From: Bacteroidota bacterium
Lineage (GTDB): Bacteria > Bacteroidota > Ignavibacteria > UBA10030 > UBA8401
DNA: 64,000 nucleotides
Assembly (NCBI GenBank): GCA_041665525.1
Contig: JBAYIS010000003.1
Coordinates: forward strand, 150,129-214,128
Direction of reading: 5' to 3'
In this document: positions 33,319 through 64,000 of the stretch, piece after piece
Position numbering within the stretch: the first letter of the stretch is position 1
Layout: every line of letters starts with the position of its first letter
Position numbers and translations under genes: made by a program
The notes under the pieces: model-generated
Database searches by the model: none
What the model saw: only the letters and a program-made list of their open reading frames with translations
What the model was told of the DNA's origin: nothing

Positions 33319-33474
33319 AGCTCCCCTTTGGTTGTTTTTGATGGATGTAAAATACAGGATAATGCTTACCAGTCTGTGATGATAATCATCTGAAAGGATA
33401 TCCATACATCGGACATGGGTTACCGAAATTATCAGGCATTTTTTTTCGGAATTGCATATATTTACCCAGTGTCT

Positions 33475-36228
33475 ATGATCAATATTAATCCTCGCCATTT
33501 TCTTTTTCTTTACTGCATCGTTTTTCTTTTTTCTGCAGCGTTCGTCTTTCCTCAGGGACAGGTGATCGAACTCAATCCTCTTTTTTCGGATCGCCCGGAC
33601 GAGCAGGAATCCGTCATTAATTTCAAGCCGATCAAGCGGCCGACCATTTGCCTGGTACTGAGCGGAGGCGGATCCCGTGGTATGGCGCACCTGGGTGTGA
33701 TTAAAGAATTAGAAAAAAACAACATTCCTATCGATTACATCGTGGGTACAAGTATCGGCGGGATCATTGGCGGACTTTATGCCTCCGGTTATACCACCGA
33801 GCAGTTGGAAAATTTGATCGATACAACCGATTGGAACTACATTCTTGCTCTGACGCAGGATACAGAACGAGAACATCTCTATTTTTCCCACAAAGTTGCT
33901 GCAGACAGGAAGCAACTGACCCTGCGCTTCGACGGACTGACACCTATTCTGCCATCAGCCTTATCCAGCGGACAACGGTTGACAAATTTTATTAACCAAC
34001 TGACTCTGCAGAGTCTCTATCATCCCGTGAAGACATTCGATGATCTCAAAATCCCGTTCAGGTGTGTTTCCACAGACCTCATCTCGGGAAAGCAGATTGT
34101 TTTCAGTTCCGGAAATCTCTCCGAAGCGCTCCGTGCAAGCATTTCCATCCCGCTGCTATTTAATCCTTTAAAAAAGGATACGATGGAACTTACCGACGGA
34201 GGATTGCGGTCCAATATTCCGGTTGATGTCGCAAAGCGGCTGGGGGCGGATATTATTATCGCTGTCAATACTACCAGTCCTATGCGTAATGCAAAGCAGC
34301 TGAATAATCCCTGGGAGGTGACAGATCAGATCGTGAACATCATGGCCCAGGATGCGAACAAACGGTCATTGGACAGCGCTACCATCGTTATCACTCCGGA
34401 TCTTGGATTCTATCCTTCCACTGATTTTTCGAATCTTTCTTTTGCAGTGAAACAGGGAAAACAAGCAGCTCACGATGCAATCTCCGCGATTCGGGATACC
34501 ATTGAGAGCAGACAGCGGAACCTTTTTTTCGACAATTCCCCTTTGTCAAATTTCTCATTTGCACTGCGTACTGTCACAATGAACGAATTTCCATTCGATT
34601 CAATCACACAAAAAGAACTGCAAACGGGAGGCAAATCGAGCGTACCGAAGATCCGGGAATTATTAACGAATATCTACAATACTGGATGGTACCGGAATGT
34701 TCATGCAGCGATGACCATTGAAGGCCAGTCGGCAGATATCACGCTCATGCTCGAACCGAATCCGATCTTGCATAGCGTTAACATTACCGGGAATACCTTG
34801 ATCGATTCTACCGCATTGACCAGTTCGTTTAATTCTTTGCTAGGGTATCCAGTCAATTTCCCAAGATTGAAAACAGCCTACGAAGATTTGTTGGGCATGT
34901 ACCGGACGGACGGATATTCCCTGGCCCGCATAACATCGGAACGTTTCGATTCGACAACGGGAACTCTTTCCCTAACGATTAATGAAGGAACAATCTTTAA
35001 AATTTATCTCCGCGGAAAAGAAAAATCGCGCGATTGGGTGATCTGGCGGGAGCTTGGATTTCGCGACGGCAGTCTCTTTACCGTTGAAAAAGGAAAAACC
35101 GCGCTGACCAATCTCGATGGGACGAATCTGTTCGACCAGGTGCTGATGGATGTCGGATTCGAAGATGGACGACCGACGATTACCATTCAAATGGAAGAAA
35201 AATCAACAGAAGTTTCACGCCTTGGATTCCGGCTTGATAACGAACGGAACTTGCAGCCATCGATCGAATTTAGGAATGAGAACCTGCTTGGTACAGCGAC
35301 GGAAATCGGAGCCAGTTTTGCCGGCGGATTGCGAAACCGGTTGTATGTTGCGGATTTTCAGGCGAACAGAATCTTCAATTCCTACTTCACTTTAAATCTG
35401 GATGCGTACTATGATCTACGGGACATCTATACGTACGCAAACGATCCGAAGCATACCAACCGCAGTGCATTCGAACGGCTTCGCATCGGTGAATATCGTC
35501 AAATACTCTATGGCGTCTCTTTCCAATTGGGAAGACAAGTGGAACGATTGGGCATCTTCAATATTGAATACCGCATTGAAGCAGACGAGGCAAAATTCAT
35601 TTCCGGGAACGGTTATCAGCCCGAACAATTCACACTGCAGGCGTTCCGGATTACTTCCACCATCGATTCCCGCGACCGGTATCCGTTCGCACGGCAGGGG
35701 TCGCTGACGAACTTCTCTTGGGAGACCGCAACTTCCACTCTGAAGAATGTTGTCGGCGATGTCGGGTATTCAAAAATCTATTTTGCATATGAGACGAACA
35801 TTTCCTACGAAAACTTTACGCTTCATCCGAAGCTTATCGCCGGATTCGGCGATCAAACATTGCCGTTGACGCAGCAGTTTTCTCTGGGAGGGGAAGAATC
35901 GTTCTTTGGATTACGTGAATATGACTCGCGGGGAAGACAGATCTTTTTAACAAGTTTAGAATTCCGGACACGGTTTCCCTTCAAACTCATCTGGGATACC
36001 TACTTCCGTTTGCGGTATGATCTCGGCAATATTTGGCCGCAACGGGAGGATATCCGTATCAGAGACTTCCATCACGGCATCGGCGGTATCGTTTCGTTGG
36101 ATACACCTGCAGGTCCAATCAGTTTTTCTGTCGGGCGAAGTTTTTACGTGCGGCGGGATCTGCTGGAACAACCGCTCACGCTCGGTCCGATTGTTGCATA
36201 TTTCTCTCTCGGATATCCCATCCTTTAG
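33475..36228 (+). CDS. Patatin-like phospholipase fused to POTRA/Omp85 (bacterial surface antigen) beta-barrel domain
   Basis: Signal peptide (MININPRHFLFLYCIVFLFSAAFVFPQ). Patatin motifs GGGSRGMAHLG and GTSIGG (GxSxG), and a DGG catalytic-dyad region (LTDGGLRSN). The C-terminal roughly 450 aa is Omp85-like. The ORF is open from 33415. Confidence 0.75.
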   Translation: MININPRHFLFLYCIVFLFSAAFVFPQGQVIELNPLFSDRPDEQESVINFKPIKRPTICLVLSGGGSRGMAHLGVIKELEKNNIPIDYIVGTSIGGIIGGLYASGYTTEQLENLIDTTDWNYILALTQDTEREHLYFSHKVAADRKQLTLRFDGLTPILPSALSSGQRLTNFINQLTLQSLYHPVKTFDDLKIPFRCVSTDLISGKQIVFSSGNLSEALRASISIPLLFNPLKKDTMELTDGGLRSNIPVDVAKRLGADIIIAVNTTSPMRNAKQLNNPWEVTDQIVNIMAQDANKRSLDSATIVITPDLGFYPSTDFSNLSFAVKQGKQAAHDAISAIRDTIESRQRNLFFDNSPLSNFSFALRTVTMNEFPFDSITQKELQTGGKSSVPKIRELLTNIYNTGWYRNVHAAMTIEGQSADITLMLEPNPILHSVNITGNTLIDSTALTSSFNSLLGYPVNFPRLKTAYEDLLGMYRTDGYSLARITSERFDSTTGTLSLTINEGTIFKIYLRGKEKSRDWVIWRELGFRDGSLFTVEKGKTALTNLDGTNLFDQVLMDVGFEDGRPTITIQMEEKSTEVSRLGFRLDNERNLQPSIEFRNENLLGTATEIGASFAGGLRNRLYVADFQANRIFNSYFTLNLDAYYDLRDIYTYANDPKHTNRSAFERLRIGEYRQILYGVSFQLGRQVERLGIFNIEYRIEADEAKFISGNGYQPEQFTLQAFRITSTIDSRDRYPFARQGSLTNFSWETATSTLKNVVGDVGYSKIYFAYETNISYENFTLHPKLIAGFGDQTLPLTQQFSLGGEESFFGLREYDSRGRQIFLTSLEFRTRFPFKLIWDTYFRLRYDLGNIWPQREDIRIRDFHHGIGGIVSLDTPAGPISFSVGRSFYVRRDLLEQPLTLGPIVAYFSLGYPIL

Positions 36229-44633: not shown

Positions 44634-46064
44634 TTAAGAATTTGGAGTTTTCGGCCTGTCGACGATTGTCGCCATCATTTCCGCTTCACACACGAGCTGC
44701 CCGTCCACATATGCTTCGCCTCTCATCGTGCACACTTTGCTGCGCCGGTTCACCATTGTGAGTTCATACACCAGTTGGTCACCCGGCACCACCTGGCGTC
44801 TGAATTTTGCATTATTGATCCCCATGAACAACACCAACCGATCATTCGTGTCCGATCCGTCCAGCAGCAGAATACCCCCCGTTTGCGCCATTCCCTCGAT
44901 AATCAACACTCCAGGCATTACCGGTGCACCGGGAAAATGCCCTTGAAAGAACTGCTCGTTCATTGAAACACTTTTTACACCGACACACCGCTCGTTTAGT
45001 TGGAATTCCACGATCTTATCAACAAGCAGGAAAGGATAACGGTGCGGGAGGATACGCTGCAATGCATTGACGTCGAATACGACTCCATGCTTCTTTTCAT
45101 GTTGATACTTTTTGACAATCTTTTTCTGTTGATATAGCTTCCTAACGACCTTCGCGAACTCCACATTTGCTGCATGTCCGGGACGCGCAGCGAGGATATG
45201 CCCTTTGAGCGGAACACCAATCAGTGCTAGATCTCCGAGCATGTCCAGCAGTTTATGTCGCGCAGGTTCATTCTTAAATCGGAGCGCTTTATTGTTAATC
45301 GGCTGTCCATGTCCGCCCAGAAAGATCGATTCTTTAATTCCAAGTTTATCCGCCACTCGCCGTAATTCTTCGTCCGGCAGGTCCTGGTCCGCAATGACGA
45401 TTGCATTATCCAGCGTTCCGCCTTTGATCAAACCAGCCTCTCGCAATTGTTCCACTTCATGAAGGAAGCAAAACGTACGGCACATCGAAAATTCTGGAAT
45501 AAATTCCTGTTCGAGATTAAACAATCCTGTATGCTGACTTCCTAGCGCCGGATTGTTGTAGTCCACCATTACCGTCATACGGAAATCATCCGTCGGCAGC
45601 GCGACAATATGAACTCCGCGCTTCTCATCCTTATATTCTACCATTTGATCGATTACAAGATAGTCTTTCGGAGCATCCTGCATTTCGAATCCTGCTTCCT
45701 GAAGCACGTCCGCATACGGTTTTGCGCTTCCGTCTCCGACCGGCGGTTCAATGCCGTCCAGATCGATGATGATGTTGTCGATCAATAATCCAACGACAGC
45801 TGCAAGTACATGCTCCGTGGTATGCACTCGCACTTCGCCTATTCCGAGCGTTGTTCCGCGCGCAACATCGACCACATGGTCAACATCTGCGGGGATCTCC
45901 GGCGAGCCGCCGATATCTACGCGGCGGAACCGGATGCCGTAATTTTCCGGCGCGGGACGGAACGTCATGGTACACTGCGTACCGGTGTGCAATCCGACTC
46001 CGGAAAGGGAGACAGGCTTTTTGATTGTACGTTGTTGAACTAACATCGAACCTCCATCATTCAA
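44634..46064 (-). CDS. lpxC/fabZ: Bifunctional UDP-3-O-acyl-GlcNAc deacetylase / 3-hydroxyacyl-ACP dehydratase (LpxC-FabZ fusion)
   Basis: 476 aa. N-terminal LpxC (SLSGVGLHTG, HTTEHVLAA) and C-terminal FabZ hot-dog (LPHRYPFLLVDKI...GHFPG.PVMPGVL). Confidence 0.85.
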   Translation of the reverse strand: MNDGGSMLVQQRTIKKPVSLSGVGLHTGTQCTMTFRPAPENYGIRFRRVDIGGSPEIPADVDHVVDVARGTTLGIGEVRVHTTEHVLAAVVGLLIDNIIIDLDGIEPPVGDGSAKPYADVLQEAGFEMQDAPKDYLVIDQMVEYKDEKRGVHIVALPTDDFRMTVMVDYNNPALGSQHTGLFNLEQEFIPEFSMCRTFCFLHEVEQLREAGLIKGGTLDNAIVIADQDLPDEELRRVADKLGIKESIFLGGHGQPINNKALRFKNEPARHKLLDMLGDLALIGVPLKGHILAARPGHAANVEFAKVVRKLYQQKKIVKKYQHEKKHGVVFDVNALQRILPHRYPFLLVDKIVEFQLNERCVGVKSVSMNEQFFQGHFPGAPVMPGVLIIEGMAQTGGILLLDGSDTNDRLVLFMGINNAKFRRQVVPGDQLVYELTMVNRRSKVCTMRGEAYVDGQLVCEAEMMATIVDRPKTPNS

Positions 46065-54953: not shown

Positions 54954-55646
54954 GTGAACGGTTTGTAGATTGTTGTAAAACAGTTATTGGCTATTCACGG
55001 GATGAGAAGATTGTTACGCATTTAAATAAACGAGATTACGGCCAGCACCTTCTGGCTTTGCCAAAAACATTATACCACACTTCATTTTTCCATACCACAG
55101 TCCTTTTCCCTCACATTAATTATTTTCTCGACATACATTCAGAATAATCGAATTTGCCACAATGGTGTATCCACCATTGTAGCATAATTATAGTGTGCAA
55201 AGATCTTGCTCATACCAAATATTAAAATCCATGGCGCCTAATCAATATCAGGAAATTAGTTCCGGTAGTTTCTTCAACCTTAAAACAGTGACGAATACAG
55301 AATATTCCTTGAAGATTTCTTGATTCGAGTTTGAGACTCCCCTTGAAGGTGATTCGAATTCTGTGGTGGGTAATAAATGCTTGAAAAACGAGAACTGTTC
55401 GTCGGATATTTCATTTTGTTTGTACCGCGCCTAACATACTTAACCATTTTTCCCTGAAAAAGTCTGAATATCATTTTTAAGATTACTTCTCTGTTATTAA
55501 TAAAAAAAAGCTTTAAGATATTTTTATCTCCTATTAATAAATTTTAAATCAGATACTTTTATCGCGATTGACAGCAGATAATAAATTATTTATTTTTAAA
55601 ATAGTTCATGTATATAATTTGTTGCCACAACAAATATTAAATAAAT

Positions 55647-56631
55647 ATGAACTCACTTTTGCATATCCTACCTAAGGTATTCCTTCCTGCAATTAGAATA
55701 ATAATTGCAATTATTTTTATTTTATCTGGATCATTAAAATATTTAGATATTAACGCCTTCCAAAATTCCATTAAAAGTTTTTGATATTTTATTTTTCATT
55801 GACCCAATATTTGTTTCGATTCTTATACCAGCCTTAGAAATAGTTTTGGGTTTCCTGCTATTGTTTTCATTTAAAATAAGAATGACTGTCTCTTTAATTT
55901 TGGTACTTCTGAGTTTATTCACATCAGTTTTACTTGCACAAATAGATAACAATACTAATATTTCATGCCAGTGTTTTGGGTTTTTAAGTGATGGTAAAAT
56001 TACAACAGCAACGATATGGCGAAATGTATTTTTGATTTGTTGCAATATTTTTATTTTAGCAAATAGTGGAGAAATACCGAATAAAATGCAGTTAGTTCAA
56101 TCCATGCGATATTTTTTCATATTATTTATTTTAACACAATCTCTAGCCTTATCTCTTGAAAACAAAATCCTTAAAGAAAGGCTTTTGATTTTAACGTCTG
56201 GATTAGAACTAAAACCTGGTGACGAAATAGATGAACTAGTAGTTTTTTCAGATCAACTGGATACTAACATTATAAAGCCAAATAATAGTAAAAAGAAAAT
56301 CATAATATTTGCTGTAAAGAAAGATTGTTCATTTTGTAAAGAGAATTTAAAGCCGTGGAGGAAAATTATTTTGATGGCCAAGAAAGAGACATACAATGTT
56401 GTAATAATTTCACCAGATTCAATAAATATTCTAAAAAATTATTTACAGGAATACAATTTAAAATACGATTACTTGTCTGCGTCAAATAAAGAATTAATGA
56501 CAAGGTTAAAGATAAAATCAGTTCCACAAACTATCTTCATAGTGAATGGAATTGTAAAGAAAGTATTGCGTGGAGTTTTGACTTCGGAAGATGTTGATGT
56601 CATTTTTAGAAATATTAACTATTCTCAATAA
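55647..56631 (+). pseudogene. MauE/DoxX-like membrane thiol-oxidoreductase fused to TlpA-like thioredoxin domain, interrupted by an apparent +1 frameshift in a T5 run at 55778-55782
   Basis: ORF-a (55647-55784) reads MNSLLHILPKVFLPAIRIIIAIIFILSGSLKYLDINAFQNSIKSF*. The +1 frame then continues DILFFIDPIFVSILIPALEIVLGFLLL...CQCFG...KKDCSFCKENL...SVPQTIFIVNG. The N-terminal portion matches the MauE family, which contains a conserved CxCFG motif. The C-terminus is a thioredoxin fold with a CxxC active site and a cis-Pro loop. Removing one T from gttttt restores a single 327-aa ORF. Confidence 0.55.
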
Positions 56632-56649
56632 AAACATTTTGAAGGTAAT

Positions 56650-56973
56650 ATGCATTCAAAATATTTGTCCTTTGCGATAATTATTGTTTTAGCATTCTCA
56701 GTTATTCAACTTTCTTCTTCAAATTCTACATTTAGTGAGACATTGCAACCTTGTTGCAATCTTGATTATTGTACTTCGTTGGATATGAATTGTGGAGACT
56801 ATACAAGCGCACAGTTTTGGGAATTTGATTGCTCTGACCAAACTATAACCTGTAGACAATGTGTAGATTACACAGTATCTGGCTGTTTATGTTCAGGAGG
56901 AAGCCAAAGATGTAAAGAAAACAATGGAAGTTATTATTATGGAAATCACGTTTCTTGCAGCACGAGTAAGTAA
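56650..56973 (+). CDS. Small secreted cysteine-rich protein (13 Cys in about 80 mature residues)
   Basis: 107 aa. Signal peptide MHSKYLSFAIIIVLAFSVIQLSS; mature part contains CC, CxxxxC and CxC pairs. 18 nt downstream of the thiol-oxidoreductase gene, on the same strand, in the same AT-rich island. Confidence 0.55.
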   Translation: MHSKYLSFAIIIVLAFSVIQLSSSNSTFSETLQPCCNLDYCTSLDMNCGDYTSAQFWEFDCSDQTITCRQCVDYTVSGCLCSGGSQRCKENNGSYYYGNHVSCSTSK

Positions 56974-57096
56974 AAACCAAATATCGAATATGAACATACA
57001 AAAATGTAATAGTGCGCAAAAGTTTTGTGTCGTGTAAAATAATATTGTTAGGTGAGTTTTTTAGTTGGTTAAAGTGTAACAAATATTCTCTTTTTT

Positions 57097-58380
57097 ATGA
57101 AAAAATCCAGCAAGTGGATATATATTATTATAATTATAGTTTTCCACACTCTTTTATTAAAAGGGCAATGGATTTCTCAAAAAGGTAGTTTGCCATCATT
57201 TTTAGGAGGACTTAAAATTGATTCATGTGATTCATTAACTGCGGTTGTTGCGTTATCTCCTTCAATGATACTCCGATCCCTTGATGGCGGAAAAGTATGG
57301 TCAAAAATAGGATCATATAGCGCAATTGATATTTCCATGGTAGATAGTTCTCATATATGGATTGGCACATTACAAGGAGATATAATGAGCACTACTAATG
57401 GTGGCATAGAATGGATTAGACAATTCCATGATCCGACAATAACAACGTATATCATTTATATTAAAATGTTTAGTTTAGGTAGCGGAGTTGCAGTGGGAGA
57501 GGGGTTGACGGGTACGTTACCTTTAGTCGTATTACAGACTAACGACGGTGGTATTCATTGGACTTCAGTAAATGATTCTGCATTTGGTGGTTACTCAGCC
57601 GACGCTTGGAGGCGCTTACAATTCAGTTCACACTCTACCGGATATGTTTGGCCTTATGGAAAAGATATATCCTCATTATGGAAAACAATAGATGGAGGTG
57701 TAACTTGGAATAATTTGCATGTTCCAGGAAATCTTCAAGTATTAAGATTTTATGATGATACTTTTGGCATTGCATGCTTTAATAATGCTCCAACTACGAC
57801 GGGTCTCTCTATCCGGCGAACAATTGATGGGGGAAATACATGGGAAGTTCTTGTTCCCATATTTAATGGTTTTTGGGGAACTGATTTTGAGTTTTGTCCT
57901 AACGATGCAAAAAAAATTTGGTTTACTGATAATCAAAAATTATTTTTTAGTGTAGATTCTGGAAGATCTTGGGATGAAAACTTTTTAATTAAGGGTACTG
58001 ATATTATCTTCACCGATTCTTTGAACGGATGGGTGATTGGTAACAATGATATCATACATACACAAAACGGTGGTTTGTTATCAATTCACGAATCAGATAA
58101 CTCGAATCCACTAAAAACTTCTTACATGTTATTCCAAAACTATCCAAACCCATTTAATCCTACAACGACCATTAAATATTCTCTATTGCAAGATGGTGTC
58201 GTACAATTAAGAGTATATGATATGCTTGGCAGATTAGTGAATGAATTAGAAAATAAAACTAAACGTTCTGGAGATTATTCTGTTGAATTTAATGCAGACA
58301 AATTATCCAGTGGAATCTATTTTTATAAATTAAATTATGGAAATAATATCCAAGTAAAACGAATGGTTTTTTTAAGATAA
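57097..58380 (+). CDS. BNR/Asp-box repeat protein with C-terminal T9SS sorting domain
   Basis: 427 aa. Signal peptide. At least six SxDxGxTW-like repeats (TNGGIEW, TNDGGIHWT, TIDGGVTWN, TIDGGNTWE, SVDSGRSWD, TQNGG). The C-terminal roughly 80 aa (NPFNPTTTIKYSL...GIYFYKL...VKRMVFLR) matches a type A T9SS sorting domain. Confidence 0.7.
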   Translation: MKKSSKWIYIIIIIVFHTLLLKGQWISQKGSLPSFLGGLKIDSCDSLTAVVALSPSMILRSLDGGKVWSKIGSYSAIDISMVDSSHIWIGTLQGDIMSTTNGGIEWIRQFHDPTITTYIIYIKMFSLGSGVAVGEGLTGTLPLVVLQTNDGGIHWTSVNDSAFGGYSADAWRRLQFSSHSTGYVWPYGKDISSLWKTIDGGVTWNNLHVPGNLQVLRFYDDTFGIACFNNAPTTTGLSIRRTIDGGNTWEVLVPIFNGFWGTDFEFCPNDAKKIWFTDNQKLFFSVDSGRSWDENFLIKGTDIIFTDSLNGWVIGNNDIIHTQNGGLLSIHESDNSNPLKTSYMLFQNYPNPFNPTTTIKYSLLQDGVVQLRVYDMLGRLVNELENKTKRSGDYSVEFNADKLSSGIYFYKLNYGNNIQVKRMVFLR

Positions 58381-58404
58381 TACGGTTGATCTAAATCCCA
58401 ATAA

Positions 58405-59673: not shown

Positions 59674-60771
59674 TTATTTCCGCATTTCAGAGATAGAAGC
59701 GCGTAACAGACCATTTGCATACTTGGTGTTATGAATACCTTCGCTCAGATCATGCTCTAACAGGAAATAATTCCAGATTGCGCCGGCATGCCGGGCAAGA
59801 ACTGTTTTGCCTGACTTCGGTGTATTCGCAACTGTATCAACCCATCCTTGAGCAACAAGAAGTGTTCTCAAAGTGTCCATGTTCGCCTTCACTTCAGTCA
59901 TTTTACCGTTATAATCCAGCGATGTCAGCGGTGCTGCGCTATGGCAATCAGTAATATTGCAACCAGTGAGGTTATCGCCTTCTTCTTCATTGCCGATCAT
60001 CATGGTATGGCCGCCGGTCAAATCGCCAGCTGCATCAGCCATATGACAAGTTTTGCAACCGTCAGTTTTCAGTTTTGCTGCGTTGGTATGCGGCGAATTA
60101 TTGTAGGTGTAACCGGGCCATTCGAATCCGCCCTCTCCCATCAACACTTGTCCCTGCACGCCGTAATGTGAATACCAGCGGGAAGGAATTTTAATGGAAT
60201 CTGTTGCGCCAATTTTGGCAATATCCAATTTTGTTGATTGAGTGCGGGGATGATGGCACGATACGCAAAGGTTACCCTTGCCATAATCAAATGTAGCATC
60301 TGCCACGCCTGTGATATTGGAGAACAGCGTAACAGGAGCAACTGTACGGAGCGAGAAATCTCCGTTCTTGTGCGGTGAATGGCACGCAAAGCAACCGACC
60401 GGTGTCGTGTTGTTGTTCGCAACCAGCGTTACGCCGAGTTGTTTTTTCACATAACCTTCAGTGGTATGGCATTCTGCGCAACTGGTTCTATTTTCGAATG
60501 CGGTTCCGCCGACAGCATGTTTGGATTTTGCATATTGGAACGTTGCAGCTGCTTTATACAGCGTTGTATCCGTATCCGGATTATGACACGTAGCGCACTT
60601 TAAATCCGCTTTGAAGCCTTCGAAGTACACAAAGCCTGCGTCTTGTCCTGCAGAGCCTGTTGCACCGTCTTTACCTGCCGGTCCTGCAGGACCTTCGCAA
60701 GCAACGAGACCGAAGAGAGCGATAACGGTTAGAACAGTTAAGATGTTTTTCACTGTTTTAACTCCTTTCAT
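59674..60771 (-). CDS. Multiheme c-type cytochrome lipoprotein (5 CxxCH plus 1 Cx4CH) with a collagen-like GXY linker
   Basis: 365 aa. Lipobox LFGLVAC, then GPAGPAGKDGATGSAGQDAG (six G-X-Y triplets). Heme motifs CATCH, CAECH, CFACH, CVSCH, CKTCH and the variant CNITDCH. Confidence 0.8.
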   Translation of the reverse strand: MKGVKTVKNILTVLTVIALFGLVACEGPAGPAGKDGATGSAGQDAGFVYFEGFKADLKCATCHNPDTDTTLYKAAATFQYAKSKHAVGGTAFENRTSCAECHTTEGYVKKQLGVTLVANNNTTPVGCFACHSPHKNGDFSLRTVAPVTLFSNITGVADATFDYGKGNLCVSCHHPRTQSTKLDIAKIGATDSIKIPSRWYSHYGVQGQVLMGEGGFEWPGYTYNNSPHTNAAKLKTDGCKTCHMADAAGDLTGGHTMMIGNEEEGDNLTGCNITDCHSAAPLTSLDYNGKMTEVKANMDTLRTLLVAQGWVDTVANTPKSGKTVLARHAGAIWNYFLLEHDLSEGIHNTKYANGLLRASISEMRK

Positions 60772-61034
60772 TAATGAAGTGTGTTGTTCCTTTTTAGTGA
60801 ATATTGGCTTACCGTTAATTGAGATAAGTCAAACTTGTTTTAAAAACTACCATTTCATCGGCAAATTATGTGCCGAAGAAAAGAGGCAAAAATGTTGAAT
60901 TTTCCCACATGGCTCCGTTCAATTTCTTAAGGTTGCAACTGATTCTTAAAGTAATTTTGCATTAATGAGAGCATGAAACGACAAAATGCTCTGTATTCAT
61001 TGGAGAAAAATCATACTAAAGTCTCTGATAAAAC

Positions 61035-61066
61035 AAAAAAGTCCTGATTTAAACAGGACTTTTTCG
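61035..61066 (-). terminator. Rho-independent terminator ending the omp-cytochrome-cytochrome operon
   Basis: aaaaaagtcctg-atttaaa-caggacttttt, a symmetric hairpin. On the minus transcript it is followed by uuuuuuguuuu, about 50 nt after the 61118 stop. Confidence 0.65.
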
Positions 61067-61117
61067 TTCGCTTACATCGATATGAATTTAGAAAATGCAT
61101 AGGCATTAATCTATCGT

Positions 61118-61930
61118 TTAATCAATTTTCCCATTAATGTGTTTTGAAGGATTGATGATAGCCATACTTGCGTTAACAACTGCACCATGACATGACGAAC
61201 AATCCGCCGTTACCGAAACGAAAGTATGTCCGGAAACAGGAAATGCTTTTTCCTTAGTGGTTGATTTTGTCGCATCTCCGTGACAAGTACCGCACGCAAC
61301 CGCAGTACTCGAAGTATCGGTCCAGGTCATGGTACGATTGAGATTGCCACCGTTGAAATTACCGTGACAGTAAGTATTGGCACACGATACGTTGGACGCA
61401 TTATAGATCGCATTGGAACGATACATCGATAGTGTGGTATCGAACCGTACTTCTGCCTTCGAATCAGAACCAAGATGTCCGGTTGCAGCAACTGTTGAAG
61501 GAACCGCATGGCATGTAGAGCATGCGACATCAGCACCGAGTGTTCCCTGCGTTACATGCTTTTGATGCGCTCCCACAGTTCTGATTGTGCTATTCGTATT
61601 TCCCAGCAGATCCTTCCATTGCACTTCCACATCGCTCGCATGACACGTTCCGCAATATTCCGGTCCATTTGGTTTTGAGTGGCAGGTCAGACAGGTTTGC
61701 CCTGCGGTCCCGCCATCATACGCAAAGCCGTGGCAGCTTTTACATGTTTGTGTATTCCATCCATTATTTTGCAGGAGTTTCTGGTGGGACTGTTCAGATG
61801 CTGCATTTGCAAAACCAACTCCATGAACGGAAAGGTTTCCCTGCGCAGGATTCTTATCGTCCTGCACTTCACTGCAGCCGACCAGCATCAGACCGAAAAT
61901 CAAAACGACGAGAGGAGTAAATTTTTTCAT
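61118..61930 (-). CDS. Multiheme c-type cytochrome lipoprotein (6 CxxCH plus 1 Cx4CH)
   Basis: Likely start MKKFTPLVVLIFGLMLVGCSE (lipobox). An ATGA overlap with the upstream 14-heme gene stop and a GGAG sequence 10 nt upstream support this start. Heme motifs CKSCH, CLTCH, CGTCH, CSTCH, CANTYCH (Cx4CH), CGTCH, CSSCH. Confidence 0.8.
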   Translation of the reverse strand: MKKFTPLVVLIFGLMLVGCSEVQDDKNPAQGNLSVHGVGFANAASEQSHQKLLQNNGWNTQTCKSCHGFAYDGGTAGQTCLTCHSKPNGPEYCGTCHASDVEVQWKDLLGNTNSTIRTVGAHQKHVTQGTLGADVACSTCHAVPSTVAATGHLGSDSKAEVRFDTTLSMYRSNAIYNASNVSCANTYCHGNFNGGNLNRTMTWTDTSSTAVACGTCHGDATKSTTKEKAFPVSGHTFVSVTADCSSCHGAVVNASMAIINPSKHINGKID

Positions 61931-63141
61931 TGTACGTTCGCTCCATGACAATATCCGCAGAAGTTCTGACCGGCTTTTCCGTTCGGCCGTGCATTCGCAT
62001 CCGTGTGGCAGACAAAACAGTTGGAAGCTGCATCGTCATGCCAATCACCCTCCGCATCCCTCATAAATCCTATGGCATGTGTCTTCGGGTTCGTTCCCTT
62101 TATCCCATCGTTGTCTGCATGGCAGGTGATGCAGGTTGGATCGCCCCCTTGAGTGTCGTGGCACGACGCGCAGCTTTGAATATCGCGTTTTGCCAGAGTT
62201 GCATGCATCCCGCCGCCGGAGCCGACACCGAATGTCGTGAATCCAAATTGTTCATGGCTCGTTGGTACAGCGCCGCCTAAGGCTGCGCTGCCGTTCATGT
62301 GGCAATCACTGCAAAAGGTCTGCTGTCGGTGACAGGTCTGACAGTCGGCAGAGCGTCCTTTCGCGTCGATGCCGTGTGTAAATTTGTAGTTCAGATCGTG
62401 AACATTCTGTGCAGCCATTGCCGAGGGGGCGTCATTCCCGAATTTCCGCGGAGACATCATACCGGTCTTTTCGAACTTCGAGAGTTTCGTCAGATTTGTT
62501 CCATCGTGACATTCCATGCAGGTCGATTCTGTATGGCAGCTTTGACAGTTTGCATCGAATGTCCGTCCGTTCATTACACGGGAATGTTCACGTTTAAAAT
62601 TCGCCACAGTATGCGAGGCAGGGCGCAGTGCCGTAAGATTTGTATGGCACGCTTCACATTGATTGGATGCTTTCACGTTGTTATGGCAAGTGTTGCATGT
62701 TGCCATCGAAGGATTGTTTGACGCTTCAGCAAAATCCGTTTTATCCATACCGGCGTGACAGGTGATACATTCCACTTTCTGATCCACCACATGTTTTTGA
62801 TGATCAAAGAGAATCTCTCTGACCGGATTCGGTAGTGCAACAGGATTGTTCTCATCCGTATGGCAGAATCCGCACGTTTCGTTCACTTCTTGTTCGTGGC
62901 AGGATTGGCACTCCGTGTGTGTTGGCAGCATCTTTTCGGATGCGTTTTGTGTCAGTTTTTCCGGAGTATGACAGGAGGAACATTCGATCCCTGCCGTGGC
63001 ATGTGTACTGTGCGAAAATTTCAGCACTTGTTTTTTGTCGACTGGCGCATCGTCGCTTGCCACAGCACTGCTGCGGTTGATAAAGACCAGCGCGATCATG
63101 GCAGTAACAATAGAAGCTATCAGGAGGCTTTTTTTCATCAT
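61927..63141 (-). CDS. Periplasmic 14-heme c-type cytochrome
   Basis: 14 CxxCH motifs in about 400 aa (CSSCH, CQSCH, CGFCH, CITCH, CNTCH, CEACH, CQSCH, CMECH, CQTCH, CSDCH, CASCH, CITCH, CFVCH, CGYCH). Signal peptide MMKKSLLIASIVTAMIALVF of signal-peptidase-I type. Its start overlaps the stop of the upstream beta-barrel gene (aTGAtg). Confidence 0.8.
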   Translation of the reverse strand: MMKKSLLIASIVTAMIALVFINRSSAVASDDAPVDKKQVLKFSHSTHATAGIECSSCHTPEKLTQNASEKMLPTHTECQSCHEQEVNETCGFCHTDENNPVALPNPVREILFDHQKHVVDQKVECITCHAGMDKTDFAEASNNPSMATCNTCHNNVKASNQCEACHTNLTALRPASHTVANFKREHSRVMNGRTFDANCQSCHTESTCMECHDGTNLTKLSKFEKTGMMSPRKFGNDAPSAMAAQNVHDLNYKFTHGIDAKGRSADCQTCHRQQTFCSDCHMNGSAALGGAVPTSHEQFGFTTFGVGSGGGMHATLAKRDIQSCASCHDTQGGDPTCITCHADNDGIKGTNPKTHAIGFMRDAEGDWHDDAASNCFVCHTDANARPNGKAGQNFCGYCHGANVQ

Positions 63142-64000
63142 AACCAATTCAATTGTTCGCTGAACCAATAGTTCAATTTAAGGAATATACGCATATCACT
63201 TTTATACTGCGGATTGCTCATCCATTGCACCTGCAAGTCCGAGGAGAGTAATCGGTCCGGACGATAGTTGACGCCGACGGTCCCGTTCACAACATCACTG
63301 GACGGGTCATTCTTCGAAAGTTTGTATGTCGCATATCCAATTGCGCACATCGGAGTCAGTTTCTGATCCATCATCGGATAAACCGCTTGAACAGATATTC
63401 CGTTCAGCTCTCCTGCATATCCAAAATTCTGCGTATAGACGGCAGAGAACATGTCATACGTCCCCCCCACGACCAATCGCTGGCTATTGTCGTCCACATA
63501 CTCAACATTGGCAAACCGCGCATAGACAAACGTTTTTGCGAGCGGCCTGTATTCCACCCCCCCTTCGATCTCTTTTGTGCTGTTGATATTAAACACCGAG
63601 AAGATAGAATTGTATGCCACTCTCGGTTGTCGATAAATATATTCCGCCGTCACATTCAGTTCCGGCATTATACCCACGCGGGCGAACGTTTGCAATTTGG
63701 AGATCTCTTCAGAATGGAAATCAAAATCCGTTTTTGCCTGTACGGTGAATTGTTTTTCAAGCTGATATTCCACATCCAACGATGCCAATTCCTCTTCATT
63801 CGGCCGGCTGTTGACAACTATTGAATAAGGATTGAAAAGTGAATCCAACCGAAGCGCCGTATACGGTTTGCGCTGCCAGCGTTTGTTCATGTAACTGAGT
63901 CCGACGATCGCTTCTTCCGTCGCCGCATACGTTACCTGTCCGCCGAACAAACCATTCGTGCCGATATAGTTCTTCCTGATGTCGCGTGATTGGATCACAT
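63138..64000 (-). CDS. Outer-membrane beta-barrel protein (partial; N-terminus beyond window), candidate porin of a porin-cytochrome complex
   Basis: More than 286 aa. Alternating hydrophobic/polar beta-strand pattern with Tyr/Gly/Asn-rich loops and an aromatic-rich C-terminus (LKLNYWFSEQLNWL). Translationally coupled to the 14-heme cytochrome. Confidence 0.5.
   Translation of the reverse strand, partial: VIQSRDIRKNYIGTNGLFGGQVTYAATEEAIVGLSYMNKRWQRKPYTALRLDSLFNPYSIVVNSRPNEEELASLDVEYQLEKQFTVQAKTDFDFHSEEISKLQTFARVGIMPELNVTAEYIYRQPRVAYNSIFSVFNINSTKEIEGGVEYRPLAKTFVYARFANVEYVDDNSQRLVVGGTYDMFSAVYTQNFGYAGELNGISVQAVYPMMDQKLTPMCAIGYATYKLSKNDPSSDVVNGTVGVNYRPDRLLSSDLQVQWMSNPQYKSDMRIFLKLNYWFSEQLNWL

Follow-up and report, generated by a model that had tools for sequence, protein, structure and literature searches.

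A recurrent gene cassette of Ignavibacteria-like genomes links a MauE–thioredoxin fusion, a cysteine-rich mini-protein and a predicted type IX-exported β-propeller

The heavy chain of methylamine dehydrogenase (MADH) is a seven-bladed β-propeller. Maturation of the light chain of the same enzyme requires both MauE and MauD (10.64898/2026.03.05.709764; PMC7794033), and MauE itself has only recently been shown to be a DsbB-like oxidase. Complementation of an Escherichia coli dsbB mutant by way of a CXC motif has been shown for the MauE proteins of Caldithrix and Desulfatibacillum only, and fusions with thioredoxin make up 8.2% of MauE entries (10.64898/2026.03.05.709764). In the present study we analysed a 64,000-nucleotide stretch of a Bacteroidota bacterium (contig JBAYIS010000003.1, positions 150,129–214,128; called the window below), in which an AT-rich island carries three genes, all on the + strand, behind a 693-bp AT-rich spacer. 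They encode a fusion of MauE with a thioredoxin domain (MauE-Trx), a small cysteine-rich protein with a signal sequence (the mini-protein) and a BNR/Asp-box protein with a sorting domain of the type IX secretion system (T9SS). A first-pass annotation, made from the sequence alone, had suggested that the three form a self-contained module for the oxidative folding and secretion of the mini-protein. The disulfide-forming role that it gave to MauE now has experimental backing, in that MauE acts as a DsbB-like CXC oxidase and is often fused to thioredoxin (10.64898/2026.03.05.709764).

The trio is a real recurrent module of Ignavibacteria-like genomes. After removal of redundancies we compared 17 independent loci, drawn from the window, L003–L015 (found by exact-protein look-up), L016 and L017 (GTDB genomes, both metagenome-assembled genomes of Ignavibacteriales), L018–L021 (metagenomes), L022 and L023; L016–L021 were located with a subset of eight family sequences as the query, and all loci were annotated by phmmer and hidden Markov model (HMM) searches together with Pfam. 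A MauE-Trx gene lies directly upstream of the Cys-rich gene, often overlapping it, in 10 of the 13 loci with enough upstream sequence (the window, L003, L004, L006, L007/8, L016, L017, L018, L021 and L022), and a gene for a BNR/Sortilin-like T9SS propeller adjoins the Cys-rich gene in 14 of the 16 assessable loci (the window, L004, L005, L007/8, L012, L013, L014/15 and L016–L022). The neighbourhood that the first-pass annotation had proposed to look for in other genomes is thus consistent. The order MauE-Trx, Cys-rich gene, propeller is matched exactly in L016, L018, L021 and L022, and the genes also form arrays: MauE-Trx, Cys, BNR, Cys, BNR in L017; BNR, Cys, BNR, BNR, Cys in L005; and BNR, Cys, BNR in L014/15 and L019. 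Between the two cassettes of L017 the identities are 74% and 79%, which indicates that they were duplicated as a unit. In addition, the pairwise identities of the Cys-rich proteins correlate with those of the propellers downstream (r = 0.79, Mantel p = 4e-4); as shared species history contributes to this value, we regard the correlation as supportive and not decisive. At L023 no propeller gene follows and the upstream side is cut by the contig end; positions 124–771 of this 53% GC contig encode a Cys-rich domain fused to a C-terminal-domain (CTD)-like domain, and neither low GC nor the three-gene order is therefore a strict rule in this family.

The island resembles the mau cluster in that MauE and a thioredoxin-like partner stand beside a small exported protein predicted to be very rich in disulfides, and in that the neighbouring large protein is a (predicted) propeller. 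Unlike in the mau cluster, MauE and thioredoxin are here a single polypeptide, the propeller is of the Ycf48/BNR type with a T9SS export domain, MauG and the conserved Trp pair for the tryptophan tryptophylquinone cofactor are lacking, and the mini-protein matches no solved structure in sequence or fold and no Pfam family. The island is not a mau cluster: neither the MauG di-haem peroxidase nor the remaining mau genes are present in it, and it holds three genes only. The MADH light chain (MauA family) was considered as an identity for the mini-protein and rejected, as no Pfam match was found in 38 members and no profile or fold match in the PDB.

The mini-protein (56,650–56,973, + strand) has 107 amino acids, with a Sec-type signal (MHSK, 17 hydrophobic residues and TFS|ET) and a mature part of approx. 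77 residues. The first-pass annotation was right about the length and the hydrophobic N-terminal signal, but had counted 13 cysteines where there are 11, at positions 35, 36, 41, 48, 61, 68, 71, 79, 81, 88 and 103. Word-indexed homology searches with the mini-protein and with MauE-Trx returned self-matches only. An exhaustive phmmer (HMMER) search of 1.84 billion cluster representatives gave 45 proteins at E<1e-3, of which ten reached E<=1e-10, and after subtraction of the query and of one repeat artefact (P0025) there are 43 credible relatives, mostly of 95–121 amino acids. Seven cysteines (C36, C41, C48, C61, C68, C71 and C88) are invariant and C35, C81, Y96 and G98 nearly so, and the conserved motifs include LSYKNxVFA(D/E)S, in the region where the signal is cleaved, as well as CVDxTxSGC and YYG. 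Homologues with a fixed Cys framework, which the first-pass annotation had named as the check on this ORF, therefore exist, and they too have no Pfam match: none of the 38 family members scanned matched Pfam, and the window protein matched nothing in NCBIfam.

The alignment of 53 sequences has 11 Cys columns. In 12 of the sequences both C79 and C103 are missing, and such joint loss is what one expects of a disulfide pair. Four sequences have another residue in place of the first Cys of the N-terminal CC, and the number of cysteines is odd (11 or 9) in most members; such a 10+1 framework implies, as predicted from the alignment, five disulfides and one extra N-terminal Cys. AlphaFold2 (AF2) with the family alignment gave a confident model, with a mean predicted local distance difference test score (pLDDT) of 86 and values >90 over residues 41–100. 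A Foldseek search of this fold against the PDB found nothing better than E = 3.8, and a profile search of PDB sequences up to E = 10 returned noise only and no MADH light chain. Some relatives are fusions. P0044 joins the Cys-rich domain to a middle domain of approx. 100 residues and a Por_Secre_tail domain (33.5 bits, 5e-8), its gene still lying between a MauE-Trx gene and a propeller gene; P0009 joins the Cys-rich domain to a CTD-like Ig domain, and P0033 a MauE N-terminus to the Cys-rich C-terminal half. We also noted in P0024, P0043 and P0044 (residues ~105–200) an extra domain of approx. 90 residues behind the Cys-rich domain, with the motif W.FG..SNP..Y......T.YAIY and no Pfam match.

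The MauE-Trx gene of the window is interrupted by a frameshift. Its 5′ piece (55,647–55,784, + strand) has 45 codons, encodes the first transmembrane helix (TM1) with a conserved Lys and ends at an in-frame TGA; it matches the family HMM with E = 3.9e-14 and aligns to the N-termini of intact homologues. The 3′ piece (55,783–56,631, + strand), in the +1 frame, encodes TM2–TM4 with the CXC motif (SCQCFG), a fifth TM helix and a TlpA/ResA-like thioredoxin domain, predicted to be periplasmic, with CXXC (CSFC) and a cis-Pro loop (VPQT), as assigned by Pfam, NCBIfam and alignment with eight homologues. Where the pieces meet, the sequence TTTTTGA (55,778–55,784, + strand) has one extra T in a run of five (55,778–55,782), and deletion of one T from this run gives a 327-residue protein, which can be aligned over its full length with eight homologues of the related loci. 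An ENA assembly (L001, a 638-kb contig) and a Logan assembly (L002, a 4.8-kb contig with 0 mismatches) carry the identical frameshift, so that, with three assemblies in total, it is reproducible at the assembly level.

All domain scores for MauE-Trx were computed on the frame-repaired protein. Pfam MauE (PF07291) matches with 74.8 bits (cut-off 27, E = 1e-20) over profile positions 3–126 of 128, and AhpC-TSA with 35.7 bits (cut-off 26, E = 9e-9), together with Thioredoxin_2 and Redoxin; the NCBIfam BT_3928 family and ResA also match without reaching their full-length cut-offs, and the best named matches of the thioredoxin domain are ResA and StoA. This domain match, together with CSFC and VPQT, places the C-terminal part among the TlpA/ResA/AhpC-TSA proteins of the thioredoxin fold. 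TM1 Lys, TM2 Glu, CXC-F-G, the fifth TM helix, CXXC and the cis-Pro loop are conserved across the alignment, in which SCQCFG, SLKYLD and PALEIVLG of the window stand against SCGCFG, TKLVD and ELILG of the homologues. Given the helix order, both redox motifs would face the periplasm if the N-terminus lies inside the cell. The identification of a MauE-Trx thiol oxidoreductase in the first-pass annotation thus stands for both domains, but not for the reading frame, the window copy being no intact ORF.

Such an enzyme has described relatives. Like the MauE proteins of the generalist pathway of Gonzalez et al. (2026; 10.64898/2026.03.05.709764), the island protein has CXC-F-G, TM1 Lys, TM2 Glu and a thioredoxin fusion; unlike them, it has Gln as the X of CXC instead of Gly or Ala, and its gene belongs to a small mobile cassette with a single candidate client family, whereas the preprint's oxidase is a housekeeping one. 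Fusions of VKOR with thioredoxin likewise combine a quinone-linked oxidase of the membrane with a periplasmic thioredoxin domain, the two being connected by an additional TM helix (10.64898/2026.03.05.709764), the membrane domain of the island protein being MauE/DoxX-like and not VKOR.

The frameshift site itself (55,776–55,785) reads AGT-TTT-TGA-T, the geometry of the programmed +1 frameshift of release factor 2 (RF2), and a +1 slip of tRNA-Phe over UGA would restore the frame; slippage at UUU-UGA is, on this reading of the codons, a bare possibility. A one-base insertion at 55,778–55,784 is more likely than a programmed frameshift, because the homologues are uninterrupted at this site. On an unrelated metagenome contig, the MauE-Trx homologue of L004 (1,941–2,959) is split by a frameshift right after the CEPC active-site motif, which brings the broken oxidase genes to two (the window and L004) among approx. 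10 loci.

The third gene (57,097–58,380, + strand) encodes 427 residues, with a signal ending ...LLKG|QW, a predicted Ycf48-like BNR/Asp-box β-propeller (approx. residues 25–345) and a type A C-terminal sorting domain of the T9SS (residues 349–424), as assigned by Pfam, NCBIfam and a PDB profile search. The sorting domain is matched by Por_Secre_tail (PF18962; 48.3 bits, 1.3e-12, cut-off 27) and TIGR04183 (48.8 bits, 5e-13, cut-off 23), and the propeller by PSII_BNR (32.5 bits, 7e-8, cut-off 27), as the first-pass annotation had read this gene. The protein is thus a type A T9SS cargo by its sorting domain, which the mini-protein of the window does not have. A propeller profile built from 15 family members found Ycf48 in the PDB with 1.5e-19 along the entire propeller (profile positions 38–328), followed by GH74 xyloglucanases and sortilin, which points to a putative seven-bladed Ycf48/BNR propeller; the single-sequence AF2 model had a pLDDT of 31. 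Homologues that are 30–42% identical adjoin the Cys-rich genes in L016–L021. We also considered whether the odd Cys35 forms an intermolecular disulfide with the propeller, but found no sign of one: the cysteines of the propellers are unconserved and of variable parity. The predicted mature N-termini of the window propeller (57,097–57,170) and of its homologues in L014–L021 begin with a conserved Gln-Trp (A|QW), which recalls the ‘Q-rule’ of Bacteroidetes, whereby N-termini become pyroglutamate after cleavage by signal peptidase (PMC5837995).

We propose, with somewhat more confidence than doubt, that a fused DsbB/DsbA-like relay oxidatively folds the mini-protein after its export by Sec, and that the mini-protein then joins its cognate T9SS propeller in acting at or beyond the cell surface. 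The island would be a horizontally acquired three-gene operon of the type found in Ignavibacteria-like genomes. By likeness to the MauE proteins that have been tested, the four-helix, DsbB-like MauE domain would have a periplasmic CXC active site, presumably re-oxidized by quinone, and would oxidize the CXXC of its own thioredoxin domain, held in the periplasm by the fifth TM helix; the thioredoxin domain would then put disulfides into client proteins. The conserved adjacency of the genes suggests the mini-protein as the main client, acquiring five disulfides and keeping one spare Cys. Once folded, it may work with the propeller outside the cell or on its surface, since the two are inherited and duplicated as a unit and relatives carry the Cys-rich domain fused to a T9SS sorting domain; their partnership is suggested by cassette duplication, co-variation and these fusions. 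The mini-protein would most likely be a tightly bound, disulfide-rich accessory subunit of the propeller, and might either leave the periplasm with it or bind to it afterwards. What the data show is the gene content, the motifs, the conservation of the family and of its gene neighbourhood, and the deviant composition; the direction of electron flow, the client relationship, the formation of a complex, the route of export and the biological role are what we infer.

Several observations weigh against this proposal. The oxidase gene is frameshifted in the window and, independently, in L004, so that in this genome the module can function in the proposed way only with a bypass of the frameshift; given the one-base insertion, the module is either decaying or dependent on the host's own disulfide machinery. 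In L005, L012 and L019, Cys-rich/propeller pairs occur with no MauE-Trx gene in the available sequence, and the oxidase is therefore not obligatory in cis. What remains of the self-contained module of the first-pass annotation is thus a trio that does recur, but with its oxidase broken here and missing from the neighbourhood in three related loci. An M28 peptidase gene lies downstream of the Cys-rich gene in L003 (8,367–10,388), where it replaces the propeller, and in L013 (1,979–3,034), which has both, the two loci coming from one metagenome; the mini-protein therefore does not have a BNR protein as its partner in every case. ResA/TlpA-type proteins, to which the thioredoxin domain is similar, act as reductants elsewhere, the propeller cysteines are not conserved and their parity is inconsistent, and the MauE preprint argues for a generalist and not a dedicated enzyme (10.64898/2026.03.05.709764).

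Other explanations of the trio were weighed. A small Cys-rich protein with a signal peptide beside a dedicated oxidase could be a free-standing secreted effector (a toxin, bacteriocin or adhesin) folded by MauE-Trx, with the propeller an unrelated or merely co-regulated T9SS cargo, and the available sequence of L006 and L023 indeed shows no propeller. Precedent comes from sublancin with BdbB: the sunA-sunT-bdbA-sunS-bdbB operon of phage SPβ, like the island, provides a mobile element with DsbB-like and DsbA-like enzymes of its own to serve a secreted product that contains Cys (PMC6391423). Precedent comes too from the candidate families of ribosome-made, post-translationally modified peptides (RiPPs) of Streptomyces found by decRiPPter, where mauE, with or without mauD, stands outside the mau cluster beside a short precursor ORF with at least eight Cys (PMC7794033). 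The Streptomyces clusters, which are putative, belong to another phylum, have an unrelated precursor family and include no T9SS or propeller gene. In contrast with the sun operon, the island lacks a leader-cleaving ABC transporter, a glycosyltransferase and an immunity gene, and its product has a Sec signal, at least five predicted disulfides and a propeller partner. Indeed no related locus contains a transporter, leader peptidase, immunity gene or modification enzyme, the N-terminus of the mini-protein is a Sec-type signal, and the features of a bacteriocin or RiPP cluster are found neither in the window nor in the related loci. No island protein matches PADLOC (defence) or PHROGs (phage). 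The toxin or bacteriocin of the first-pass annotation finds no support in any of this. In addition, the family diverges slowly and keeps non-Cys motifs (CVDxTxSGC and YYG), unlike the fast-evolving toxins of conflict systems, and the Cys-rich gene is duplicated and co-varies with the propeller genes. Paired with a propeller in repeated cassettes, it therefore looks like a T9SS cargo partner and not a free-standing effector, and we consider the latter unlikely. The claim of the first-pass annotation that this is not a described system holds for the Cys-rich family and its fixed pairing with T9SS propellers, which are new, but MauE-Trx is a known fusion architecture and MauE/MauD beside Cys-rich precursors had already been flagged in Streptomyces (PMC7794033). 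Literature matches that joined MauE with the T9SS proved spurious.

The thioredoxin domain might instead be a reductant like ResA, CcmG or TlpA, keeping the cysteines of a metal- or cofactor-binding mini-protein ready for insertion of its ligand. The ResA and StoA matches, the CxxC (C68–C71) and CxC (C79–C81) spacings and the odd number of Cys in most members are all consistent with this, and one earlier study, as cited in the MauE preprint (10.64898/2026.03.05.709764), took MauE for a reductase. Yet an E. coli dsbB mutant regains disulfide formation when given MauE, sequences without C79 also lack C103 but retain their other eight or nine Cys, a pattern that suits a disulfide better than a metal site with four ligands, and no locus contains a metal chaperone or transporter; this explanation appears to us quite unlikely. 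The island could also be decaying passenger DNA, a remnant of transfer whose frameshift marks lost function and whose three ORFs play no role in the host. The frameshift in three assemblies, the strong compositional mismatch with little amelioration and the finding that no paralogue of an island gene occurs elsewhere in the window would agree with decay. Against that, the mini-protein and propeller ORFs are intact and full length and keep every family-invariant residue and the T9SS domain, the lesion is a single one in 3.4 kb, and it lies at a UUU-UGA where +1 slippage might restore the frame, and we therefore think it improbable that the cassette is a mere remnant.

The proposed role of the mini-protein as an extracellular partner of the propeller also has a stricter form, which we put forward as a speculation with little weight. 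Here the mini-protein would be an obligate light chain of the T9SS propeller, matured by the fused MauE/MauD and crossing the outer membrane only when bound to its CTD-bearing partner. It would then be a T9SS substrate with no sorting domain of its own, hitch-hiking on that partner, and the conserved odd cysteine, with the YYG motif, might provide a cross-link, a catalytic site or a cofactor site. Such a surface two-subunit design would be convergent with the quinoprotein amine dehydrogenases, which have a propeller heavy chain, a disulfide-rich light chain and MauE/D.

Whichever form the partnership takes, the cassette supplies a candidate client for MauE outside MADH, encoded directly downstream of MauE-Trx in 10 independent loci, and defines an unannotated family of small proteins with 9–11 Cys and a confidently predicted fold that matches none among the solved structures. 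The family is linked genetically to a very large and functionally obscure group of T9SS BNR/Ycf48-like propellers of Ignavibacteria and relatives, and this linkage suggests that such propellers may have small accessory subunits as partners. Export of the mini-protein in complex with its partner, if it occurs, would bear on whether the T9SS can move complexes. The scope is bounded by the rarity of the family, with approx. 43 clusters at 50% identity among 1.84 billion, which seems confined to uncultured bacteria of the Fibrobacteres–Chlorobi–Bacteroidetes (FCB) group, and by the damaged oxidase gene of the window copy.

The composition of the island was examined within the bounds 54,960–58,400, where GC is 31.6% compared with a window mean of 45.5%. 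Among all 3.4-kb windows (SD 3.5%) this is the single minimum, approx. 4 SD below the mean, and GC at third codon positions (GC3) is 0.245–0.25 in the three island genes compared with 0.41–0.555 in seven flanking genes. The drop over approx. 3.4 kb reported in the first-pass annotation is thereby confirmed, the difference remaining significant after window-wide statistics, as is the layout of its genes on one strand with short gaps (18 nt from MauE-Trx to the Cys-rich gene and 123 nt from there to the BNR gene). All related loci except L023 have 28–38% GC. Because the island and nearly all related loci are thus of low GC, unlike the 45% GC host, the data fit the horizontal acquisition that had been suggested, and with the closest propeller homologues only 30–42% identical, no close donor has been sampled. 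Of the features of a genomic island or mobile element, deviant composition alone is present: the window has no tRNA gene that could serve as a target and no integrase or transposase gene, and no flanking repeat is significant. Terminal inverted repeats or att sites at the island edges were considered and rejected, the 13-nt inverted repeat found there being not significant (p = 0.03 against the window and 0.16 against an AT-rich control).

The non-coding leader between the purE stop and the MauE-Trx start (54,954–55,646, no strand assigned; 32% GC) contains no ORF with homology, no Rfam family and no tRNA, and neither the related loci nor other parts of the window contain anything similar to this 693-bp spacer. 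In scans for promoters and terminators, matches were no more numerous than in shuffled sequence. Approx. 200 nt past the purE stop, at 55,155–55,184, the spacer contains a hairpin with a 13-bp stem (TGCCACAATGGTG ... CACCATTGTAGCA) and no clear T-tract; it may act as a terminator or in regulation.

On either side lies ordinary core chromosome: purK and purE are upstream of the island, while a CBM20-esterase gene and a cluster of multihaem cytochromes follow downstream. This cluster (59,674–63,998, − strand, continuing in L001) is a run of multihaem c-type cytochrome genes with MtrC/MtrF-like and c3/c7/c554-type motifs beside a cytochrome b gene; directly adjoining the island, it looks like an extracellular or periplasmic electron-transfer cluster. 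One of its multihaem cytochromes gave the only match to CCP_MauG, which was below threshold (18.7 bits, cut-off 25.6). Farther out in the window are genes for UvrA, a GWxTD protein, Omp85/BamA proteins and an LpxC-FabZ fusion, the last two including a patatin-POTRA-Omp85 fusion protein (33,415–36,228) and the LpxC-FabZ gene at 44,634–46,064. Both fusions give hints to the lineage of the host, and the LpxC-FabZ gene together with the T9SS sorting domains suggests a bacterium of the FCB group. Fusion of LpxC with FabZ is typical of the Bacteroidota/Chlorobi/Ignavibacteria group.

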